From a phage, in sequence record PV467748.1: a stretch of DNA of 64,000 bases; one strand, given 5' to 3'. The position numbers were made by a program, and so were the translations under genes. Below the pieces are notes generated by a model. The model saw only the letters and a list, made by a program, of their open reading frames with translations, was not told the origin of the DNA and ran no database searches. The stretch's first letter is position 1, and each line of letters begins with the position of its first letter. This document shows positions 26,132 to 38,145 of this stretch, in pieces.

Positions 26132-26161
26132 ATAGTACCACATCCTTGTGGTGTTGTAAAC
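26132..26161 (-). promoter_or_regulatory. early sigma70-type promoter (GTTTAC ... TACTAT)
   Basis: Reverse complement GTTTAC, 18-nt spacer, TACTAT. Confidence 0.4.
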
Positions 26162-28284
26162 TACATTTTGAATTTATTTGATAAAGAAGAGATATCCAAA
26201 GACGCTGCAAGGATTTCCATAGCTTCGTTGCTTTCAGAAACGGATTCATTAACCAAGAATTGACTAAATCCATCCATCAGGCGAACTTCACCAGTTTCCA
26301 TCAAATGGTCACCATCGTAAACAGATTCGCTGAGCTCTGAAGGAGGTGTTACGGTAGCTTCCATAAGGTATTTGTGAGATACTCTATCATTCATGGCAAA
26401 AGCCGCTACTTTATCAACCTTCAACAATAATCCGCGCGGAAGGATAATTTCTGCTTCTTCGGCATATTCTGTAAGGTCACCAGGAGCGATAACTTTAACT
26501 GCTTCAGCACCTCGAATAACCATACCAATTTCAGCAATTCTATCTGCAGGACCTTCAGGTGCAATTGGATTACCAAACTCGTCTTCTTCCCATTCTACCT
26601 CTTCGTCATCGACTTCACCCACATCAGATGAACTACCACTAGCCAATTTAAACAACTCATCAGCTGAGGACAAAGAACCTTCACCACCAACAAAAACGGC
26701 TTGGTTGTCGAGGGCCATATAATTTTTACCGAATTCACCAAAGATGTTAGGCTTTAATGAGGCTGACACAAAGTTCTTAAAGTAAAATGTTTTGTTATCG
26801 ATATTATGGCGCAGAATTTTGTATGGCAAATCCTGACCACGATACAAAATAGTACCCTTAGGAAGTTTAATACCCTTAGTAAATGCTGAGTCTAAATCCT
26901 TAATCAATTTAATAGCCGTTGTATTGTTTTCGGATTCAGGTTTACCTAAAAGGAATAAGTTCATAGGAGCATATTCAGCCGCGCAATATTCAATAATAGC
27001 ATTGCTTTCGTCTTTGGTTAGGTCCTTAGGTTTAATGAGCTCGCCTGAATAAGCATATGCATCACTAATAGAATCGTTAACCAGTTTATAAACTGCTTCC
27101 ATAGCGAAAGCAATTCGAGAGGCCTTTTCTGAAGGGGAACCCTTAAAACGGGTACTCAGGTTATTAACAATTTTCTTAATAATATCCAGACTATTGGTTG
27201 TATTGATTTGCGAAAGACCACTTAAAAGTCTATCGACTTCTGTATTAAAAAATGCCATATTATTAGAGTAAATTTCAAACCCTTGTTTATCTCTATTAGC
27301 ATAATTTAGTTTAAATTTACTATCAGTCATTAAAGCGTGTGTGAGAGCAATAGTGTATCTAAAGTTGGCAAGGTCCTCGCTCTTAGATTTAAACTGAGAA
27401 GCCTGGCGCATTTTAGTAATAGCACCTTTTTTAAAGTTCTGGCTAATCTGTTCAATACCTTCATTCTCAGGGCCTTCAGCCGTGTGAACAGGTACAGAAG
27501 CTTCAAACTCATTATAAACCTGCAATTCTTTAGGGGACAAAGTTTCAGGTTCGGCAGTAGAATACTGCGCCGCTGCTGCCATACGACGGGAAATCTTAGT
27601 ACGGGTAATGACAGCCTTATCGGTACGTTTCTCTTCAACTTGTGCAATAGATGCCGCTACTGCTTCAACCTTACTTACGGCCTGGCCGGTTTTCTTAGAA
27701 ACATACACTTCGCCAACTTTAGACTCAACTTTAGTATAAAGATCGGCATTAATTTCAGGCATACCCTTGATATCTTCAATATTAGCACCACGACGTACTA
27801 AAAGAACGTAGGTATGTTTTCCGCTGAATTGGAACATGTCGTCAACAACTTTAAACTTACCACCGGTACGAGCCATAGCCAAACGAGCTAATACGCGCTG
27901 AACGGTAGGGCCCTTACCTTTCATTTTCTTAGTAGGGAAACGGAACAGAACTGCGTCCATTTTAAGTTTGTTTATTTGTTCGTATATGGTATCGAAAATG
28001 GTGTTCAGTGTACCAAGTGGATCGGTACCCAACCCGCCCTTGAGTTCTGCCGGAGCGCCTTTAGCTGACAAACTCATCAAAATAACATGAACATATTTGT
28101 CGCCCGGCTTAACCATTTTAATAGCGTCTCCTTGAGACGCATAAGATACCATACGAGCAACCAGATTATCATTACCTGGTGCTTGGATAGAGAAAATCTG
28201 TGGAATACCGGAACCCGGTTTAAGATTTGTTACTGGATAGTTTTTAGCGGAATCACTATCAAAAACCTCATTTAAATTTTCCAT
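26161..28284 (-). CDS. alt: Alt-like packaged mono-ADP-ribosyltransferase, paralog 1
   Basis: 707 aa; N-terminal LNE-V processing motif, PQIFS, KGGLG, RFPTKKMKG; C-terminal R/S/ExE elements (YRGQ, FVSASL, EAEIILPRG). Confidence 0.85.
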   Translation of the reverse strand: MENLNEVFDSDSAKNYPVTNLKPGSGIPQIFSIQAPGNDNLVARMVSYASQGDAIKMVKPGDKYVHVILMSLSAKGAPAELKGGLGTDPLGTLNTIFDTIYEQINKLKMDAVLFRFPTKKMKGKGPTVQRVLARLAMARTGGKFKVVDDMFQFSGKHTYVLLVRRGANIEDIKGMPEINADLYTKVESKVGEVYVSKKTGQAVSKVEAVAASIAQVEEKRTDKAVITRTKISRRMAAAAQYSTAEPETLSPKELQVYNEFEASVPVHTAEGPENEGIEQISQNFKKGAITKMRQASQFKSKSEDLANFRYTIALTHALMTDSKFKLNYANRDKQGFEIYSNNMAFFNTEVDRLLSGLSQINTTNSLDIIKKIVNNLSTRFKGSPSEKASRIAFAMEAVYKLVNDSISDAYAYSGELIKPKDLTKDESNAIIEYCAAEYAPMNLFLLGKPESENNTTAIKLIKDLDSAFTKGIKLPKGTILYRGQDLPYKILRHNIDNKTFYFKNFVSASLKPNIFGEFGKNYMALDNQAVFVGGEGSLSSADELFKLASGSSSDVGEVDDEEVEWEEDEFGNPIAPEGPADRIAEIGMVIRGAEAVKVIAPGDLTEYAEEAEIILPRGLLLKVDKVAAFAMNDRVSHKYLMEATVTPPSELSESVYDGDHLMETGEVRLMDGFSQFLVNESVSESNEAMEILAASLDISSLSNKFKM

Positions 28285-28287
28285 TAT

Positions 28288-30372
28288 TTACCCTTGGATG
28301 AATTTTTCTGGGATGTCATAGAGGTCTATGCATGAAGCCAAAAGAGGCAGTACATCAAACCGGGTAGATTTAACAAATGAATCAAAAGATACAGGGCTTT
28401 CGGAAGTATCGAAGTCATCTTGGTATACAACCAATTCACCAGTTTCCATTAGTACGTCACCATCATACACTACAGATTCTTGAAGCTCATCTGTTGTCAT
28501 AACTTCAGCTTGAATGAGTTTTGTATTATTAGATGTTGTTCCATCATTATTAGAAGCATCTGTTATTTTATTAACTTTGACCATTAATCCACGTGGTAGA
28601 ATAACTTCAGCTTCAGTTGCTATTCCGAGATTTCCTGGATATACAACATTAACTTTATGAGCACCGTCAATTGCCCATCCTATTTGAGCTTTAACGTAAT
28701 CAGGATTTTCCTTATACGCCCTTATTTCATTAGGGTTAATAGTTATTCCTTCTTCATTTTTATCGACTGTCAATTCATTGCGAACTTCCGGTTCTAAAAG
28801 ACCGATACCAGCGTGTGTAACACCAAATCGTCCAAAAATGATAGGGGTTAAAGAAGTAGATACAAAATTTCTGAAATAGAACACTTTATTTTTAACTAGT
28901 GCTTCGTATATAGGAGCAGTCATACTCTGGGCACGATAAACTGTGATGCCTTCTGGTATACGGTCGCCGTTTTCAAAAGCTGAATCTAAATTATTTATCG
29001 CAGATTCAATTTCTTTTTCACTCATTACCTCATATCGTTCTGGATTGTAGCGACCTAAAAGAAGATTATTGATGTCAGTATATCCTGAACCACAATATTC
29101 TCTGATACCACGCTTTTGTGATGGAGTATATTTAGAACCCTCACGAGCAATAGTAATATCAACCATAATACCGCCACCTACACCAGCAAAACTATAAACA
29201 CATTTTTTAATGAACTTGGTCTTAGTGGCTTTCCACTTGGACTCGGTTAATTCATTCCAGACGTCGTCAGGTTGACCTTTACGAGTTTTGTTATGCTTGG
29301 CCAACCATTTGGCTTTGTATTCTTCGAAAATGGTATTAATAGCAGAGGCATATTTTTCTAGAGCTTTAACAGATGTCAAAGGTTCGTTTTTGATGGCCGC
29401 AAGAATTTTATCTTTAATTTTCTCTTGGATTTCACCTATACCGTGAAGAGGAAACATTTTGTAATCGTAATGCAATTCTTCAGCAGTGCCTTCAGCTATT
29501 ATATTAGCAACCTTATTTTTAGCCGCAGGAGAATTGTTATTAGTAACCATTTCCTGGGCCTCAGGGATTAATGGAGCTGTTGCTGGTTTATTAAAATCCA
29601 CTGCAGTAGCTTCATATTTCTTAAACAGTTCACTTTCATTACGATAAGATTCTAACGATTGACTTGCTGCAATAGCACGACGCGAAATCTTAGTCTTGGT
29701 TATAACCATTTTATCAGTGCGACGTTCTTCAACTTTAGCAATACTGCCGGCAATAGCAGTTTCTTTAGTAACCTGCACACCTTCTTTTTTAGAAATATAA
29801 ACTTCACCGACATCAGAATCTACCTTAGTGTATAATTCGGAATTAATTCCAGGCATACCTTTGATATCTTCGATATCAGCTTGTTTACGAACTACTAGAA
29901 TATAAGTATGTTTACCAGTAAATTGGTACATAGCCGGAACTACTTTGAAGCGTCCACCTGTTTTTTGAGTTGCCAAACGTTGGATAATCCGTTGGACGAT
30001 AGGTCCTTGCCCTTTCATTTTCTTGGTTGGAAAACGGAACATCACAGCATCCATACGAAGCTTTTTAACTTGTTCGAATACTACGTCGAAAATGGTATTA
30101 ATAGCATCAATAGGAGTAGGGCCTAAGCCGCCTTTAAGTTCGGCTGGAGAACCTTTAGCTGAAAGGCTCATAAGGATAATGTGGGCGTATTTATCACCTA
30201 ATTTAACCTGTTTAATAGCATCGCCTTCAGAGGCATAAGATACCATACGAGCAACCAATTGGGATTCAGCATCGCCAATCTTCCAAATCTGGGGTACTTT
30301 AAGTTTTGGGTTTAAGTTTACAGTAGGCAGGGTGCCTTCGGACTCAAACACCTCATTCAATTGTTCGGTCAT
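28288..30372 (-). CDS. Alt-like packaged mono-ADP-ribosyltransferase, paralog 2
   Basis: 694 aa; same N-terminal module; C-terminal YRAQ, FVSTSL, EAEVILPRG. Confidence 0.85.
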   Translation of the reverse strand: MTEQLNEVFESEGTLPTVNLNPKLKVPQIWKIGDAESQLVARMVSYASEGDAIKQVKLGDKYAHIILMSLSAKGSPAELKGGLGPTPIDAINTIFDVVFEQVKKLRMDAVMFRFPTKKMKGQGPIVQRIIQRLATQKTGGRFKVVPAMYQFTGKHTYILVVRKQADIEDIKGMPGINSELYTKVDSDVGEVYISKKEGVQVTKETAIAGSIAKVEERRTDKMVITKTKISRRAIAASQSLESYRNESELFKKYEATAVDFNKPATAPLIPEAQEMVTNNNSPAAKNKVANIIAEGTAEELHYDYKMFPLHGIGEIQEKIKDKILAAIKNEPLTSVKALEKYASAINTIFEEYKAKWLAKHNKTRKGQPDDVWNELTESKWKATKTKFIKKCVYSFAGVGGGIMVDITIAREGSKYTPSQKRGIREYCGSGYTDINNLLLGRYNPERYEVMSEKEIESAINNLDSAFENGDRIPEGITVYRAQSMTAPIYEALVKNKVFYFRNFVSTSLTPIIFGRFGVTHAGIGLLEPEVRNELTVDKNEEGITINPNEIRAYKENPDYVKAQIGWAIDGAHKVNVVYPGNLGIATEAEVILPRGLMVKVNKITDASNNDGTTSNNTKLIQAEVMTTDELQESVVYDGDVLMETGELVVYQDDFDTSESPVSFDSFVKSTRFDVLPLLASCIDLYDIPEKFIQG

Positions 30373-30380
30373 AATAATTC

Positions 30381-32276
30381 CTATTTAAATAAATTTGATA
30401 ATTTTTCCATAGAATCTTCGTAAAGGATTTTATCATAACTTTCAAATGAAAGTACTGTGCTATACGAATTTTCTTCTGTGATTTGTTCAGAACCAATAAC
30501 TTCGCACTCCACCAATACGTACTTACCTATAGAACCCATAAGACCTTTAGAAGCACCATACACTTTATTAATTTTAAGCATTACGCCTCTAGGAAGAATA
30601 ACCTCAGTTTCTGTAGACCAATTTGCCAAATTACCTGGTACGATAACTTTAATTTTGTCCGCGCCTTTAATAATTAATCCAAGCTTAATTGTCTCTCTAG
30701 CACTTCCGGTTGCACTTTTAATTGTGTCTTCTAGATTATTATCTATATCGCTAGAAAGAGCTTCGGGATCTAAATTTGATTGAGCGTGTCCCATTTCGCC
30801 AAAAATATTAGGAGCTAATGAGGTAGATGCGAAAATAGGAAGATACATTACTTTATGTTTTATTGAATTCAAAGCCATTTCGGTGGGCATTATTTGAGAT
30901 CGATACACTATAGTTCCTTTAGGGAGCTTTGTACCGTTTTCAAAAGCAGAATCCATATCACCAATCATTTTTATCATTTCATCAGTAGTATCTGTTTTAC
31001 CTAATAAAAAGTTGTTAATGTGATTATATCCACCGCGAGTGTACTTTTTGATAGCCTCTTCTTGAGGTTTAGTTAAATTGGGATTGTCATCTATTTTAAA
31101 CAAAGGTTGTATAGATTTGGTATAGACTGCTACTAATGATTTTATTACTTCTTTTATTTTAGATTCTCTAGCCCATGTACCTTTAACTGAACCATCTAAA
31201 AGAGATGCGGCAACTAATCTAAGGACGTCCACATGTGTTTTACCTGATTTTAAAGCATTTATAACACCATTAGATTTATCTAAAGAATCTGATGATTCTA
31301 AAGCAAACTTTATATCTTTAATTAATTTAAGCCTATGCTCATCTATTTCAAACGACGGATTAACACCATTAAAAATATAATCTAAATATTCTGCCATTTC
31401 TTTAGAAGTATCTTTTAATACTTTAATACCGGCTGACGCTATTTGGCTTTCTTTAGAACCTTCAGAAGAATGCACTGAACTAGTAATAGATAAATCGGAG
31501 TAAACTTTTTTATGTTCTTCTGAAAATTTATTCAATCCTGACGGTTCTGATGTTGAGTATAGTGCATTTATTGCGGCTCGTTTAGAAACCTTTGTTTTGG
31601 TTATAACCATTTTATCTGAACGAGATTTTTCTATTTCATCTATAGATTTAGCTATGGCTTCTAGTTTAGTAACATCTTCACCTGTTTTCTTTGAAACATA
31701 TACATCACCAACTTCAGATTCAACTTTAGTATATAACTCAGCATTAATATTTGGGATGCCTTTTATAGATTCTATATTTTTATTTTTACGGTAGATAAAA
31801 ACATATGAATGTTTACCACTGAATTGGTACAAGGCGTCAAGGACCTTGAATTGTCCACCCGCTCTAGAAGCTATCAATTTGGCTAGGACTCTCTGTACGG
31901 TTTTTTCCTGCCCTTTCATTTTCTTGGTTGGAAAACGGAACATCACAGCATCCATACGAAGAGCTTTAATTTGTTCATAGACTATATCAAATATGGAACG
32001 AATAGCTGAAATAGGATTTGTGCCTAGCCCGCCTTTAAGTTCAGCCGGCGTACCTTTAGGAGATAGGCTCATTAAAATAACATGCACGTATTTATCACCC
32101 GGCTTAACTTGTCTAATGGCATCACCTTCTGAAGTATAAGAAACCATTCGCGCTACAAGGTTATCATTACCTTCTGCCTTTATATTCCAAATCTGTGGTA
32201 CTTTAAGTTTAGGGTTTAAATTAATAGCAGATAAATCTACATCCCCATCAAATATTTCATTTAGTTGTTCAGGCAT
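30381..32276 (-). CDS. Alt-like packaged mono-ADP-ribosyltransferase, paralog 3
   Basis: 631 aa; same N-terminal module; C-terminal YRSQ, FASTSL, ETEVILPRG. Confidence 0.85.
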   Translation of the reverse strand: MPEQLNEIFDGDVDLSAINLNPKLKVPQIWNIKAEGNDNLVARMVSYTSEGDAIRQVKPGDKYVHVILMSLSPKGTPAELKGGLGTNPISAIRSIFDIVYEQIKALRMDAVMFRFPTKKMKGQEKTVQRVLAKLIASRAGGQFKVLDALYQFSGKHSYVFIYRKNKNIESIKGIPNINAELYTKVESEVGDVYVSKKTGEDVTKLEAIAKSIDEIEKSRSDKMVITKTKVSKRAAINALYSTSEPSGLNKFSEEHKKVYSDLSITSSVHSSEGSKESQIASAGIKVLKDTSKEMAEYLDYIFNGVNPSFEIDEHRLKLIKDIKFALESSDSLDKSNGVINALKSGKTHVDVLRLVAASLLDGSVKGTWARESKIKEVIKSLVAVYTKSIQPLFKIDDNPNLTKPQEEAIKKYTRGGYNHINNFLLGKTDTTDEMIKMIGDMDSAFENGTKLPKGTIVYRSQIMPTEMALNSIKHKVMYLPIFASTSLAPNIFGEMGHAQSNLDPEALSSDIDNNLEDTIKSATGSARETIKLGLIIKGADKIKVIVPGNLANWSTETEVILPRGVMLKINKVYGASKGLMGSIGKYVLVECEVIGSEQITEENSYSTVLSFESYDKILYEDSMEKLSNLFK

Positions 32277-32311
32277 AATAATTCCTCTTAATACCTGTAT
32301 TTATGCCAGAA

Positions 32312-32329
32312 AAAGGCCCGAAGGCCTTT
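32312..32329 (-). terminator. intrinsic terminator upstream of alt paralog 3
   Basis: AAAGGCC-CGAA-GGCCTTT with a T-tract on the - strand. Confidence 0.6.
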
Positions 32330-32330
32330 A

Positions 32331-32516
32331 TTAAGGAAGTACTAGCAGAGTACGGTAAACTTCAAATTTAGGACCCTTTTCATAGCGGTCGAAATTATCT
32401 TTAAAATCAGCGAACGCGATTTCATTTTCAAATTCAAGGACAATTTGGGACACTGCGGTGGAGACATCGCCACCTTCTTTATATCCAATAACCACGGTTT
32501 CTAAATAAGCTTTCAT
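32331..32516 (-). CDS. hypothetical small protein (start uncertain)
   Basis: ORF abutting the ligase stop; internal Met start gives 61 aa. Confidence 0.4.
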   Translation of the reverse strand: MKAYLETVVIGYKEGGDVSTAVSQIVLEFENEIAFADFKDNFDRYEKGPKFEVYRTLLVLP

Positions 32517-32517
32517 A

Positions 32518-34023
32518 TTATAGTCCAGTTTGAGACCAATCGCCAAATACATCTTCAAATGTATCAGCTTCTGTTTTATCGAAACGCCAACCTTTAATAA
32601 TTGGAAGGAAAATACCTACAGTATCAGTACGTCCTTTAGAATGAACCCAACCATTACATTCGCAGTCAGCAATACGACCAATCAATTTACCTTCACGGGC
32701 TTGTTTCATAAGAAGTTCACGGTCTAAATCAGGACGGTCTTCTAATGGAATCAATACCTTTTTACCTGATTTATCTTTCTTATGGGTGGTATCTTTAAAG
32801 CCTGAGCCACAGTCACTTGTAATTCGACGACAACGTGATACCAATTCGACACCACCAAGTTTGTTAGGGTCCTTCGAGTGTTCATAATAACCCACTACTT
32901 CTAAAGCGATATCGATTACTTCTTTGAACTTGATAAGATTCTTAGAACGGCGGTTTTCCCAGTAGGAGTCCATGTTCTTAAGGATAATACCTTCCAGACC
33001 TTGGTCGACATATTTCTTATAAACGACTTTAGCTTCTTCAAGATTATTAACCCATTGCGTTTCAATAGGCTCGACACGTGTAAAGCCTTCAGCCATTTGT
33101 ACTAATGCAGCTAAACGAACATCGTATTTTTGACCTTTAATTTTGCCTTCAGAATAAACTTCATCTAACGGAACATAGTCCCATGCCTGCAATACCATAC
33201 CATCTGCTTCAGCTGGAGTAATAGTTCCTTGAAGAGCTTTATTAGCCAAACCATTTGAAGTAGAACGGTCGGCGACTGTCTGGAATTCCTTGGCTTTACT
33301 TAATTCCGGAAGTTCTTCATCAAACATACTAAACAAATCGTTAGATGCTTTAGGTTCAACTTTAGGGGTATGGTAAACTAATTCACCATCAATCATAACG
33401 CCATTAGGATGACGTTGACGAGCTTCTTCGGTCATTTTAATAAGTTCGGCTGCAAGCTTAGTAAGCCCTTGATATTCATTACCACCGCGAGTAAGGAATG
33501 TAACGCCCGAATCACGAACTTCAGCAAAACAACGAGCACCGTCAGCTTTTAATTGAGCAAACGCCGGCCATTTAATATTTTTCTTAATTAGAGCTTCGTC
33601 ATAAGAACTAGCCAACATCTGTGGTTGTTCAGGGATTAAACCTTTCCAAACCTTGTTAGCAATAGAAATCGATGCACCACATTCAAGGTCGCGCATCATT
33701 ACACGACGTAATACCTCGGCATCTGGTCCCTTAGCATCGGCAATGATTTGAGCCAGTTCTTCAATAGCAGCATTACCGGTAACCTTACGAGTAGCCAAAG
33801 TGAATTCAGCGAAATCAAGAAGGTCTTCAAGAGTAATCATACCAAAGGATTGGGACGTAAATCCAGGTTCAGGCCACTTTTTGATGCCGTAGTTCAGACG
33901 ACGGGTATACGCCATACGATAAACGCGTTTCAGAAGCTCATTGTCCTTTTCACGAGCAATAATAGCTTCTTTAGCTTTAGTAGAATCAATAGAAGCAATT
34001 TCGTTTAAAATATCTAAAATCAT
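32518..34023 (-). CDS. 30: ATP-dependent DNA ligase
   Basis: 501 aa; KADG adenylation motif (QLKADGARCF); similarity to T4 gp30. Confidence 0.95.
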   Translation of the reverse strand: MILDILNEIASIDSTKAKEAIIAREKDNELLKRVYRMAYTRRLNYGIKKWPEPGFTSQSFGMITLEDLLDFAEFTLATRKVTGNAAIEELAQIIADAKGPDAEVLRRVMMRDLECGASISIANKVWKGLIPEQPQMLASSYDEALIKKNIKWPAFAQLKADGARCFAEVRDSGVTFLTRGGNEYQGLTKLAAELIKMTEEARQRHPNGVMIDGELVYHTPKVEPKASNDLFSMFDEELPELSKAKEFQTVADRSTSNGLANKALQGTITPAEADGMVLQAWDYVPLDEVYSEGKIKGQKYDVRLAALVQMAEGFTRVEPIETQWVNNLEEAKVVYKKYVDQGLEGIILKNMDSYWENRRSKNLIKFKEVIDIALEVVGYYEHSKDPNKLGGVELVSRCRRITSDCGSGFKDTTHKKDKSGKKVLIPLEDRPDLDRELLMKQAREGKLIGRIADCECNGWVHSKGRTDTVGIFLPIIKGWRFDKTEADTFEDVFGDWSQTGL

Positions 34024-34283
34024 TTTACCGTCCTTACAGTTTGTGTACTTCTATTATAAGCTACTTCATCTAAAAGCTCATTTAAAGTTTTGTGATACGA
34101 TATAATACGCTTATCTTTAATATCGTATTCAGTAACATACATAAATCCGCGCCGAACACATTGGATAAAGATATCTTCATCTTTGGCTTGGAAATATACA
34201 GGGTTCAATCGAAGGAAATATCTAACGTTTCCATAATCATGGGATTTAGGCGTTCCATCAGTAATAGTATGAACTACAAACAT
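34020..34283 (-). CDS. hypothetical protein
   Basis: ORF between the HAD-like gene and ligase; start uncertain. Confidence 0.4.
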   Translation of the reverse strand: MFVVHTITDGTPKSHDYGNVRYFLRLNPVYFQAKDEDIFIQCVRRGFMYVTEYDIKDKRIISYHKTLNELLDEVAYNRSTQTVRTVK

Positions 34284-34284
34284 A

Positions 34285-34923
34285 TTAACCTCGAGCAATC
34301 CATTCAACTGCAGCGTTATTACGAAGGGATTCAATTGCTGCGATATCGTCCCATGAATTAACCTTTACGGCCAGATTAGGTTTAAAGTCACGTTCACCAC
34401 GGGCCAACCAATAAACTTGGATATCCATGAGAACATTAGATGCGGCATCACAGTGGTGAGCCAAATCATCGACATAAAACTTAATGCGTTTGCCGTATGT
34501 ATTTTTAGCTCTTATGAACAGGTCTTCTTTTGATTCTGAATGACCACACATCAGAATCTCCTTGAATGCGCCAGGGAACAAAGCATTCAAATTGAATTGT
34601 CTATTCAGCAGGGCGTCAATTGAGTCGCCTAGCGCAGTCACGGCTACAAAATCGAAGTCTTTTTTGAGCTTGTTGATGTGTTTTAATGCGTCCATGTAAG
34701 GAGACAGATAACGAATAAAATCCGACTGATTATATTTCTCAATTAAACGTGCGCCTAATTCGTCGTCACAATTAAACAGTTCGCCTGGAGATAAGAAACG
34801 TTCGTCCTGAATCATATTCAAAATATGTTCTAAAGGCAAATTATATTTCTGTGCGAAATAAGGCAAGCCGGACTGCCAACTTAAACACACTCCATCGATA
34901 TCTGTTAAGATAACTGGTTTCAT
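34285..34923 (-). CDS. HAD-superfamily hydrolase (nucleotidase/phosphatase-like)
   Basis: 212 aa; N-terminal DxDG motif (ILTDIDGV) typical of HAD phosphatases. Confidence 0.6.
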   Translation of the reverse strand: MKPVILTDIDGVCLSWQSGLPYFAQKYNLPLEHILNMIQDERFLSPGELFNCDDELGARLIEKYNQSDFIRYLSPYMDALKHINKLKKDFDFVAVTALGDSIDALLNRQFNLNALFPGAFKEILMCGHSESKEDLFIRAKNTYGKRIKFYVDDLAHHCDAASNVLMDIQVYWLARGERDFKPNLAVKVNSWDDIAAIESLRNNAAVEWIARG

Positions 34924-35387
34924 AATAAATCTCTCAATTTGTTTAGGATGTCGATAAACTCTTTTTCAGTTAGTATTGTATCACATTCTGTAAGGTGGCT
35001 TGCCATTGAATGCTTTAAAACCTTACCTTTAGCGGCTTGTAACGCATCTCGGAATCCTTTGTTCTGGAGCGCTGCTTCAAAATATGCATTTGTATACAAC
35101 TCTTTCCATGCTGCAGAGTATCTTGAAAAGGGAATTCCAAGCCAGAAAAGCGTCCCACGGTCCGCAGCTCTTGCATAAGCTCTTCCACTTTGCTGGGCGG
35201 CCAATCCGGACATCCCAAATATACGTTTTTGTTGTTCAATATTTTTCACCTTACACCCTTGGAGGAATCCTTCGAGTCCACCAAATTGGATACCATCCAT
35301 AACGAAAGGCCATTTAGCAAAGTTACTTAATGCGCATGATGGCCACGGAAAGTTACTTCTAATTTCTAACTCAGACATCTTTGACAC
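34920..35387 (-). CDS. NADAR (YbiA-like) domain protein, candidate ADP-ribose glycohydrolase
   Basis: 155 aa; LSNFAKWPFVMDGIQFGGLEGFLQGCK matches the YbiA/NADAR signature (SNFAAWP..DG....EHYFQAQK). Confidence 0.65.
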   Translation of the reverse strand: MSKMSELEIRSNFPWPSCALSNFAKWPFVMDGIQFGGLEGFLQGCKVKNIEQQKRIFGMSGLAAQQSGRAYARAADRGTLFWLGIPFSRYSAAWKELYTNAYFEAALQNKGFRDALQAAKGKVLKHSMASHLTECDTILTEKEFIDILNKLRDLL

Positions 35388-35583
35388 TTATAATTTCGAC
35401 ATCGGCCCAATGCCCGTAACCAGGCAGACGGTCTTTAATAGATAATCCACCGTCAGACTTCAGCATTTTAATTGTTTTGGTATACGGTTCATCTTGTGGT
35501 TGCACAGGAGATAAATCAGTTACACGATAAGTCACTTCGACCATTTCCGTACCTAATAATTTCTGAATCAGTTTCTTAAACAT
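35371..35583 (-). CDS. hypothetical protein
   Basis: 70-aa ORF in an operon-like array. Confidence 0.4.
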   Translation of the reverse strand: MFKKLIQKLLGTEMVEVTYRVTDLSPVQPQDEPYTKTIKMLKSDGGLSIKDRLPGYGHWADVEIISVKDV

Positions 35584-35584
35584 G

Positions 35585-35779
35585 TTATCCTCGCTTTAAA
35601 CATTTGATTACGGACAGTTCAGAACCCATACGAACGTCTTCAGTTCCATCGACCCATAGGACGGTGTAGGCTTCTTTAATAGTAGCATTACCTAATTTAA
35701 AAGCAGGTAGAACCTTTGAAATCATACCAGGAATACCTACACCTTTTAATTGGACTGTTTGTGATAAGAATAGTTGCAT
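35585..35779 (-). CDS. hypothetical protein
   Basis: 64-aa ORF, tightly packed. Confidence 0.4.
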   Translation of the reverse strand: MQLFLSQTVQLKGVGIPGMISKVLPAFKLGNATIKEAYTVLWVDGTEDVRMGSELSVIKCLKRG

Positions 35780-36066
35780 TAGAACCTCATCTGAAAGCCA
35801 TGGGATTTAACATTACCACCATAGATGTCAGAGGTATTGACTTCACGGGCGACACTTGGGTCGATGTTAATATCATGGTTGAGCTTAGTGATTGCTAGGG
35901 TGTCACGACCATTAACAGTACGGAATTCTACTGGACATACAACATCGGCATAAGCCTTAATGGATTCACGAGTAGGCTGTTTGTCAGCAGGAACATCTTT
36001 ACTTGCCTTAGAGAAAACAACTTCACAGAAATTTTTACGAGTATCGAAATAAGTGGTCATAAACAT
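35779..36066 (-). CDS. hypothetical protein
   Basis: Start moved to internal Met after GAGGAA SD (MFMTTYF...). Confidence 0.45.
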   Translation of the reverse strand: MFMTTYFDTRKNFCEVVFSKASKDVPADKQPTRESIKAYADVVCPVEFRTVNGRDTLAITKLNHDINIDPSVAREVNTSDIYGGNVKSHGFQMRF

Positions 36067-36081
36067 AATATTTTCCTCAAT

Positions 36082-36097
36082 GGAGGCCGAAGCCTCC
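36082..36097. other. stable stem-loop GGAGGC-CGAA-GCCTCC
   Basis: Perfect 6-bp stem with a CGAA loop between two - strand genes. Confidence 0.5.
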
Positions 36098-36107
36098 ATT
36101 TTTAAGA

Positions 36108-36473
36108 TTAGATATCGAATTCATTCAGAACTACATCAAAGATTGCTTCCAGGTGTTCAGGTTTAGCTCGGTTGCTCAGGATGTGACGAATCCAGGTTTT
36201 AACCAGAAGCTTACGATTAGAACCGTTCCAGCAAGGATGGGTACCTAAATCACGTTGACGGAAATCGTCATCTAAAGCGATTTTAAAAGTAGAACCTTCC
36301 ATAGTGATTGAAACCGTAATACCATTTTCAAAGCGCATGTAAACGTAGTTAGGAGTCATGCACTGTTCGATTTCACACACTGTACCGTTTTCGTGTTTCC
36401 ACAGGCAAATAACTTCGGAAGAACCAGCGATACCGTTAGAAACATATTTACGTTCGAAGTTGATGTAGTTCAT
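36108..36473 (-). CDS. hypothetical protein
   Basis: Start at MNYINFERK after GGAGAATAAAA SD; shares its leader with the next gene upstream. Confidence 0.5.
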   Translation of the reverse strand: MNYINFERKYVSNGIAGSSEVICLWKHENGTVCEIEQCMTPNYVYMRFENGITVSITMEGSTFKIALDDDFRQRDLGTHPCWNGSNRKLLVKTWIRHILSNRAKPEHLEAIFDVVLNEFDI

Positions 36474-36510
36474 TTTTATTCTCCAGTTTGTTTTCGTATT
36501 ATTTGGTACA
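36474..36510 (-). repeat. conserved promoter-proximal leader cassette, copy 1
   Basis: Near-identical to 36881-36917 (ttattctccagtttgttttcgtattatttggtaca). Confidence 0.7.
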
Positions 36511-36515
36511 GCTCT

Positions 36516-36545
36516 ATAATAACACAACCTGTACCAAAGTAAAAC
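36516..36545 (-). promoter_or_regulatory. early-type promoter with -10 inside the inverted repeat GGTACAG/CTGTACC
   Basis: Reverse complement GTTTTAC ... TATTAT; followed by the shared leader. Confidence 0.4.
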
Positions 36546-36547
36546 AT

Positions 36548-36880
36548 TTATTTCACAACATTCCAATTTTTCATATCAAGTTTACCAACTTTTTTCATCT
36601 GAGCAATCAGACGTTCAGCGCGTGTACGGGCATTAACGTAATAGAATTCACCAATTTTGTTTTCTTCAATACGACCAGTAATTACAGTTTTCAGTTCATA
36701 AATCCAACCTGTAAAGAAGTTGTGAAGCTCGATGGTAAATGTGAAATCAGTACCCATACCTTCAGTTGTTTCAACTTCGATGATATCACCTTCAACTGCA
36801 GTCAGGACCCACATGGTTTCTTGATATCCACCGTTGAAACATTTAGCTTTAACAGATGCATTCAGATTTACAGTTTTCAT
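36548..36880 (-). CDS. hypothetical protein
   Basis: 110 aa; leader identical to that of the 36108-36473 gene. Confidence 0.5.
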   Translation of the reverse strand: MKTVNLNASVKAKCFNGGYQETMWVLTAVEGDIIEVETTEGMGTDFTFTIELHNFFTGWIYELKTVITGRIEENKIGEFYYVNARTRAERLIAQMKKVGKLDMKNWNVVK

Positions 36881-36917
36881 TTTATTCTCCAGTTTGTTTT
36901 CGTATTATTTGGTACAT
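36881..36917 (-). repeat. conserved promoter-proximal leader cassette, copy 2
   Basis: Near-identical to 36474-36510. Confidence 0.7.
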
Positions 36918-36921
36918 GTCT

Positions 36922-36950
36922 ATAGTATCATGCCTACCGGAGATGTACAC
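36922..36950 (-). promoter_or_regulatory. early-type promoter (GTGTAC, 17-nt spacer, TACTAT)
   Basis: Directly downstream of a - strand terminator. Confidence 0.45.
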
Positions 36951-36978
36951 CTTTTTTTTAAGATTTAGAAACAAAAAT

Positions 36979-36996
36979 GGGACTCCGAAGAGTCCC
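36979..36996 (-). terminator. intrinsic terminator
   Basis: GGGACTC-CGAA-GAGTCCC followed by ATTTTTGTTTCT on the - strand. Confidence 0.65.
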
Positions 36997-37001
36997 ATAA
37001 C

Positions 37002-37163
37002 TTATGCCTGAGGCTTACCAAAGCAAGCAGCATCTGCACGCAATACTGCACGAGCACGAGCTTGAAGCTTATCAACTACCTGATTGATACGCTTGTTGGA
37101 CGCACGCTTGTAACCAGCGCGTTTAGAGGTACCGTCAACTACTTTAACTTCTTTCTTAGCCAT
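37002..37163 (-). CDS. small basic protein (53 aa), below the ORF-track cutoff
   Basis: Hand translation MAKKEVKVVDGTSKRAGYKRASNKRINQVVDKLQARARAVLRADAACFGKPQA; followed by a terminator. Confidence 0.4.
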   Translation of the reverse strand: MAKKEVKVVDGTSKRAGYKRASNKRINQVVDKLQARARAVLRADAACFGKPQA

Positions 37164-37319
37164 TTTTAAATCTCTTAAATTAGGATGCAGGACTTATTGG
37201 CGTTGCCTGCGCAAGCCCTCAAGGGGAACATAGGTTTTGGATATTTAACGACAGGATAACCATAAACCTCGTCATCATACCAACCACGACTTAGACAGAT
37301 AACCTTTTTCTGACGCGTG

Positions 37320-37348
37320 ATAGTACAAAATACATTCAAGAGGTACAC
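37320..37348 (-). promoter_or_regulatory. early-type promoter (GTGTAC, 17-nt spacer, TACTAT) with a long leader
   Basis: Reverse complement GTGTACCTCTTGAATGTATTTTGTACTAT; about 150 nt upstream of the 37163 start. Confidence 0.4.
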
Positions 37349-37426
37349 CGTAAAACTGTTGGGGTCTTAAAACTATAATGATTCGCAAATCATTAATCAA
37401 ACAGTTCGACGGCTCCTCGATTTAAT

Positions 37427-37675
37427 TTACTTCAGGGTAATAATAAAATGACGTACTGCTTTACGAGCTGCTGAAGCCAAAGGCTTAGCAAATTTCAGTT
37501 CATCTTTAGCTTCCAGTTCAGCAGCCAGAGTAGCCTGAGCAGGATTCAGATGTTTGAAATAACGCAGGATTTCCAGTGCTTCGGCTTCGACATCAATAGA
37601 TGCGCCGTAGTTTTCGTGACCGTTGTTCCAAGCGTTGCGTTGCAGTTCAAGAGCGTGATTCAATTGTTTGTTCAT
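37427..37675 (-). CDS. rIII: rIII lysis-inhibition accessory protein
   Basis: 82 aa; same length and position as T4 rIII, adjacent to gene 31. Confidence 0.8.
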   Translation of the reverse strand: MNKQLNHALELQRNAWNNGHENYGASIDVEAEALEILRYFKHLNPAQATLAAELEAKDELKFAKPLASAARKAVRHFIITLK

Positions 37676-37821
37676 TTTAGTTTCTCAATTCGAGATAAAG
37701 ATTGGTGGACACGTTCTTCTGAATTTCACTTCCTTTCGGCAAGTCTCTCAGTTGTAGTCCACCGCTTAGGATTCTCCGGTTAACTAACTAGTCCGGCAGC
37801 CAATCCATATTATTATTTATA

Positions 37822-38145
37822 TCACTTATAAAGACACGGAATAGCTTTATAGTGACAGGTAACGAATTTCTGTTTAATTTCTTTAGGTTGCTTAATACCG
37901 AGCGCAACTAAAGGATGAGGCACGTTAGCAATCTTACCAACAGGAAGTGGAGTCAAATCACCTACTTCACAAAAACCTTCAGGGACATCAGGTCCTACAG
38001 AATAAATTTCACAAAGTTCGGGGATTTCACCTTGATGAAGCTTGCCAATAACGATACCAGATGCAGTAGTTTCTTCATCGCCAGCTTGTTTTGGTTCGGA
38101 AACGAGAATAACATATTCTCCGACCGCTTTAATAGGAAGTTCCAT
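37822..38145 (-). CDS. 31: co-chaperonin (GroES-like) for capsid folding
   Basis: 107 aa; near-identical C-terminal half to T4 gp31 ([24 protein letters not shown]...[17 protein letters not shown]). Confidence 0.92.

Follow-up and report, generated by a model that had tools for sequence, protein, structure and literature searches.

In a 64,000-nucleotide stretch of phage DNA (sequence record PV467748.1, hereafter the window), two adjoining genes are best read as independent members of the conserved 30.x block. In this reading, gene 30.3 is adfN and encodes an anti-DarT enzyme, gene 30.2 encodes a ligase-linked phosphomonoesterase of the HAD type, and the short overlap between the two is a matter of packing. 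We put the probability of this reading at roughly 0.9. The gene in the window is an intact ortholog of T4 adfN, to which the T4 function can probably be transferred on the basis of 87% identity and the conservation of all functional residues. Family, fold, residues, orthology and synteny were read in the window itself; the enzymology and the DarTG1 phenotype are those of the T4 ortholog and come from the literature. The anti-DarT function is thus already known and published for the 87%-identical T4 protein, and the case in the window is not new.

The source phage is, judging from its closest relatives, a JS98-like (Dhakavirus-type) T4-like coliphage. Over 2.1 kb around adfN and 30.2, the DNA is 93-97% identical to that of phages fDHCT2, KIT01, NC-G and JS98, and the gene names 30.1-30.6 are used in the records of these four phages. 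The minus strand is the coding strand for all genes of the 30.x block, from 30.4 down to the Alt-like genes (Table 1).

Table 1. Positions in the window of the genes of the 30.x block, the ligase gene and the Alt-like genes
Feature	Position	Strand	Product or supporting match
adfN (gene 30.3)	34920..35378	-	152-aa NADAR-fold DNA ADP-ribosylglycohydrolase, anti-DarTG1 factor (function by orthology to T4)
gene 30.2	34285..34923	-	212-aa HAD-superfamily phosphatase (predicted); helical C1-type cap, short form, nucleotidase-like
ATGA overlap (adfN stop and 30.2 start)	34920..34923	-	direct sequence reading; identical arrangement in T4
gene 30.4	35371..35583	-	70 aa; phrog_2042, E 3.3e-34
gene 30.1	34020..34283	-	87-aa DUF3045 protein between 30.2 and ligase; PF11243, E 3.5e-19
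gene 30	32518..34023	-	ATP-dependent DNA ligase; PF01068, E 2.7e-23
Alt-like gene 1	30381..32276	-	ADP-ribosyltransferase; PF03496, E 2.5e-15
Alt-like gene 2	28288..30372	-	ADP-ribosyltransferase; PF03496, E 2.2e-36
Alt-like gene 3	26161..28284	-	ADP-ribosyltransferase; PF03496, E 2.6e-17

Gene model, family and fold of gp30.3

The preliminary description of this DNA had reported the NADAR gene as an ORF of 155 aa (34920..35387). The ORF is present at that location, but it begins at a GTG at 35387, and an ATG nine bases further on gives a protein of 152 aa. Given that the 152-aa version corresponds residue for residue to T4 gp30.3, and also to database homologs of 152 aa, the true start is very probably at 35378. 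Apart from this start codon, the coordinates and motifs of the preliminary description were confirmed. With this start, the catalytic residues land on the published T4 numbering, namely E36 and K43. The window protein and T4 AdfN are of equal length and 87% identical over 152 of 152 aa. Both genes are flanked by 30.4 and 30.2, an arrangement that is also found in RB69, and both overlap 30.2 through the same ATGA. The differences from T4 are 20 substitutions, none of which falls in a family-invariant column, and the phage itself, which is JS98-like and not a Tequatrovirus.

In a direct Pfam scan, the protein matched PF08010 (Phage_30_3, "Bacteriophage protein GP30.3") over 138 of 138 profile positions, with an E-value of 1.7e-64 and a score of 216 bits (cut-off 36). 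It is also a full-length match to phrog_652. The relationship to the NADAR superfamily, which had initially been proposed from a YbiA-like signature, is more distant at the sequence level. The motif quoted for it, LSNFAKWPFVMDGIQFGGLEGFLQGCK, is present, and the family profile aligns it with residues 29-82 of YbiA (FSNFAAWP..DG....EHYFQAQK), but only weakly (E 0.019); in this alignment, E36 and K43 fall on the EHYFQAQK of YbiA. Against the NADAR profile itself (PF08719), the window protein gave no match at E<=1, whereas 13 of 40 diverse family members did match, the best of them with E 1.5e-7. Some database entries of the gp30.3 family carry the label YbiA/DUF1768. Because the window protein does not score against PF08719 and its sequence link to YbiA is weak, the superfamily membership rests on the fold, the motifs and the transitive PF08719 matches. 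We consider this link to be solid, and the proposal of a NADAR-superfamily enzyme is upheld. A sequence search with gp30.3 against PDB chains returned nothing at E<=10, and NCBIfam gave nothing useful for either gp30.3 or gp30.2.

We also examined the residues expected in the active site. E36, K43 and H123 do not vary in an alignment of 40 homologs with identities as low as 36%. The conserved catalytic Glu/Lys pair is represented by E36 and K43 in T4 and by E43 in PnNADAR. It has previously been reported that a His at the last strand is the hallmark of the phage (gp30.3-type) NADARs, and that the catalytic residue found there in other NADARs is Glu in the YbiA type and Asp in the BC4488/DarG1 type (PMC11125620, PMC11543638). 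In the AF2 model of the window protein (pLDDT 94.7), H123 is located at the end of the last strand (120-122). H123 therefore probably corresponds to the hallmark His, as the counterpart of the catalytic Glu/Asp (E125 in PnNADAR), and it sets gp30.3 of the window apart from the DarG1/BC4488 and YbiA types. The C-terminal helix (138-151) is intact in the model, and the alignment with T4 and RB69 confirmed that the last 15 residues are present. Identity to the window protein is only 15-20% for the NADAR antitoxins of the DarG1 type and for the superfamily at large (PF08719; structures 8bat and 8bau; E. coli YbiA, 2b3w).

Another ORF lies on the minus strand within adfN, in a different frame (35015..35239), and corresponds to 30.3' of T4. 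The two versions share 59% identity, as against 87% for the adfN frame, and the ORF was rejected, as it gives no sign of independent constraint.

The T4 ortholog and the predicted role of AdfN

The resistance of T-even phages to DarTG1 has been mapped to gene 30.3, which was renamed adfN, for anti-DarT factor NADAR (Johannesman et al., Nat Commun 2025, PMC11825919). In the same study, AdfN was characterised as a guanine-ADP-ribose DNA glycohydrolase. The purified T4 protein strips ADP-ribose from DarT1-modified DNA, and E36A, K43A and truncation of the last helix all impair it (PMC11825919). Deletion of adfN makes T4 sensitive to DarTG1, so that AdfN is necessary for resistance (PMC11825919). 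The preliminary description had regarded the phage gene as a candidate for counter-defence; this was right, and with an 87%-identical ortholog of such a function, the gene is more than a candidate. RB69 is sensitive to DarTG1 because a frameshift removes the last 15 residues of its gp30.3 (PMC11825919). We checked the RB69 record and found that the protein stops at T137, without the C-terminal helix; over the shared 137 residues it is 87% identical to the window protein, whose allele is of full length.

Hydrolysis of guanine-ADPr by T4 gp30.3 in vitro was also found in an independent study (PMC11125620). The NADARs tested so far, including T4 gp30.3, act on guanine-ADPr on DNA and not on thymidine-ADPr (PMC11825919, PMC11125620), and T4 AdfN does not counter the thymidine-modifying DarTG2 (PMC11825919). 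Further data on T4 are available from HIDEN-SEQ, a transposon-sequencing preprint. Under DarTG1, insertions in 30.3 were lost (log2FC -7.25, adj p 0). On K-12 without DarTG1, in LB and in M9, they were neutral, with 27 of 28 sites hit and a log2FC of +0.12.

On these grounds, AdfN of the window would act as follows. A host DarT1 toxin would ADP-ribosylate guanine in the phage DNA, thereby blocking replication. AdfN, a free-standing N-glycosidase with the NADAR fold, would hydrolyse the bond between guanine and ribose and free ADP-ribose, and in this way replicable DNA would be restored. Catalysis would proceed via the Glu36/Lys43 pair, with the phage-type His123 in place of the catalytic Glu/Asp of other NADARs, and the C-terminal helix would be needed for full activity. 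There is one set of results that does not fit this scheme easily. T4 AdfN did not rescue uninfected cells from DarT1 toxicity and did not fully protect T5 and Bas25, and it appears to need an additional T-even protein in vivo (PMC11825919). Since T4 AdfN gives no rescue outside T-even infection, the in-vivo mechanism is incompletely understood. The same results distinguish the phage enzyme from the DarG1-type antitoxins: the NADAR of the window is an orphan that has no DarT partner, and the T4 enzyme is no antitoxin in uninfected cells.

We also considered the possibility that the phage NADAR works mainly on small molecules, such as soluble ADPr-derived immune signals or, as in the case of E. 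coli YbiA, reactive riboflavin intermediates, and that its activity on DNA is secondary. However, the T4 ortholog is tied both genetically and biochemically to DarTG1 and to the removal of ADPr from DNA, and T4 30.3 has no phenotype when DarTG1 is absent. A principal role in small-molecule metabolism or signalling is therefore very unlikely.

The preliminary description had further noted an array of Alt ADP-ribosyltransferases (ARTs) about 2.6 kb away in the same direction, and had asked whether the NADAR counters a host DarT-like system or trims ADP-ribosylation inflicted by the phage itself. The array is indeed there: its first gene begins 2644 nt downstream, at position 32276 of the same strand. 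If the NADAR were to reverse or limit the ADP-ribosylation carried out by the three nearby Alt-like ARTs, then its position on the same strand as this triple array would be readily explained, and the early-gene closeness of T4-like NADARs to ARTs has indeed been noted earlier (PMC9503650). However, Alt is described, in the T4 annotation and in PMC9503650, as an ADP-ribosyltransferase of protein (RNA polymerase), which does not agree with the preference of the tested NADARs for guanine-ADPr on DNA. Moreover, insertions in T4 30.3 are neutral without DarTG1 in both media. The adjacency to alt also follows from the conserved gene order of T4, and in many T4-like genomes the NADAR is located elsewhere. 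We therefore regard the trimming of self-inflicted ADP-ribosylation as extremely unlikely, and for T4 the question is resolved in the direction of host DarT1.

The three Alt-like genes (707, 694 and 631 aa, all PF03496) stand in tandem in the window, as opposed to the single alt of T4 and RB69. In related phages, the Alt paralogs beside the ligase are only ~45% identical. This suggests that Alt paralogs may diversify rapidly.

Among the enzymes by which phages respond to DarT toxins, which ADP-ribosylate phage DNA, AdfN is one that has been characterised. Since adfN is intact in the window, its JS98-like phage is predicted to resist E. coli strains that carry DarTG1. Such a prediction is of use for host-range prediction and for phage-therapy cocktails, and it adds no new biology.

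Gene 30.2 and its relation to adfN and DNA ligase

The 212-aa product of gene 30.2 matches phrog_420 (E 1.5e-70) and is 74% identical to T4 gp30.2, from which it differs by the absence of the ~70-residue C-terminal tail of the T4 protein; long and short forms are both common in the family. The four HAD motifs are all conserved among 37 homologs: D8, D10, K132, D152 and D153 are invariant, and T96 is conserved in at least 90%. The AF2 model (pLDDT 92.5) has a Rossmannoid HAD core, in which a group of helices (residues 16-86) follows strand 1 as an inserted C1-type cap. In the HAD superfamily, a C1-type cap usually goes together with a small-molecule substrate. Given that the active site of gp30.2 is capped in this manner, its substrate is most likely a small molecule.

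The protein is predicted to be a Mg-dependent HAD phosphomonoesterase, most like the 5'(3')-deoxyribonucleotidases. Against PF06941 (NT5C), it scored 13.2 bits (E 0.081), which is below the family cut-off of 24.8. NT5C is nevertheless the most frequent weak Pfam match among the homologs (8 of 37, best E 0.0029), and the family profile gave E 0.31 with 2jao. Because the matches of the gp30.2 profile to PDB sequences are all sub-threshold, no specific HAD subfamily was assigned. The NT5C/cdN/mdN nucleotidases and other C1-capped HAD phosphatases are the closest known proteins, in the sense of resemblance and not of membership. In HIDEN-SEQ, T4 30.2 was non-essential on K-12, with 72 of 72 sites hit, and was neutral in M9; these T4 data make 30.2 an accessory gene, dispensable under laboratory conditions. 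No paper was found when the literature was searched for "gp30.2".

The NADAR gene had initially been described as coupled to this HAD-type hydrolase. The HAD gene is real and so is the overlap, but a functional coupling is supported neither by synteny nor by the T4 transposon data. To begin with the overlap, gene 30.1 starts 1 nt past the stop of 30.2, the coordinates of 30.1 and the ligase start overlap by 4 nt, and the final 8 nt of gene 30.4 run into the ATG of adfN. All junctions from 30.6 to the ligase are either overlaps of 1-8 nt or 1-nt gaps. With packing as tight as this throughout, the ATGA overlap is not special, but reflects the general style of the block.

We analyzed the synteny of 76 gp30.2-family loci from IMG/VR (L082-L157) and 80 NADAR loci, taking neighbours within 4 kb. 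A DNA ligase gene was found downstream in 72 of the 76 gp30.2 loci, which come from diverse T4-like phages; in 64 it was within 400 nt, in several cases with an overlap. A gp30.3-type NADAR was found in 38 of the 76, with 20 of these abutting, and most of the 80 NADAR loci had no gp30.2 in the neighbourhood. In at least 11 T4-like genomes (~160-175 kb), the gp30.3-family NADAR and the 30.2-ligase block are ~55-60 kb apart (locus pairs L037/L112, L042/L131, L052/L151, L053/L109, L059/L107, L064/L114, L067/L105, L072/L097, L073/L146, L077/L106 and L081/L098). The comparison of 72 with 38 among the same 76 loci indicates that the HAD gene tracks the ligase and not the NADAR. In other words, the link of 30.2 with the ligase is stronger than its link with the NADAR, and gp30.2 could serve DNA ligase in some nucleotide-related way.

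These results also bear on a two-step scheme, in which AdfN frees ADP-ribose, or a phosphorylated derivative of it, and gp30.2 then dephosphorylates or detoxifies the product, or in which gp30.2 is the T-even-specific factor of AdfN. The stop/start overlap is kept in T4 as well, and half of the gp30.2 loci do have the NADAR upstream on the same strand, which would be in keeping with a module; T4 AdfN is also fully effective only in T-even infection, and RB69, where it works, has 30.2. However, the other half of the gp30.2 loci have no NADAR nearby, many genomes keep the two genes far apart, and the neighbouring genes are packed just as tightly. The T4 insertion data are more direct: under DarTG1, insertions at 71 sites of 30.2 were neutral (log2FC -0.12, p 0.61), in contrast to the value of -7.25 for 30.3. 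In addition, purified AdfN is active alone in vitro. For T4, the two-step module is thus largely refuted, and we consider it exceedingly improbable. The narrower idea that gp30.2 is the missing cofactor of AdfN was likewise rejected, as the HIDEN-SEQ tables give it no DarTG1 phenotype and its synteny follows the ligase.

The distant NADARs in the T4-like genomes with separated loci are ~40% identical. Either the NADAR gene has moved within the T4 superfamily, or it has been acquired there independently. In several clades, 30.2 and the ligase gene overlap with no gene between them.

Genes 30.4 and 30.1 and the extent of the block

Under DarTG1, the only other gene with a significant effect in the T4 block from 30 to 30.9 was 30.4 (HIDEN-SEQ; log2FC -1.79, adj p 0.014). 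This introduces the question of whether gp30.4 is a T-even-specific helper that AdfN needs in vivo. The significant depletion, the failure of AdfN outside T-even infection and the fact that gp30.4-like ORFs abut the NADAR in 29 of 29 T-even-type loci all speak for it. However, insertions in 30.4 are expected to disturb the translation of the overlapping adfN. Also, in phages that have the NADAR elsewhere, gp30.4-like genes are still located beside the HAD gene, which argues against an obligate pair of 30.4 and NADAR. A helper role for gp30.4 therefore seems very unlikely. The simplest explanation for the depletion of 30.4 is a polar or translational-coupling effect on adfN, although the authors of HIDEN-SEQ state that polar effects are uncommon in their data.

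With regard to the extent of the block, a terminator-like hairpin on the minus strand (36977..36998; a 9-bp stem and a T run) is located just after an ORF of 53 aa (37002..37163), and a non-coding gap of ~120 nt (36881..37001) comes after it. The hairpin and gap probably mark the upstream boundary of a transcription unit that contains 30.8 through 30. A promoter scan was uninformative, since it gave 11 sigma-70-like sites, fewer than the 16±4 in shuffled controls, and a search of positions 32000-38000 against Rfam found no RNA family. The ORFs on the plus strand across the region are, in our judgement, shadows of the minus-strand genes, in view of the ORF list and the family matches of the latter.

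The gp30.1 protein (DUF3045) has a pattern of conservation different from that of its neighbour. Its identity reaches 97-98% among loci of the JS98 type, yet is only ~42% in phages where the adjacent gp30.2 is 100% identical (loci L002, L003, L007, L008 and L021). By this pattern of identities, gp30.1 appears to behave as a swapped cassette. A metagenomic homolog, P0132, is a fusion of gp30.2 and DUF3045.
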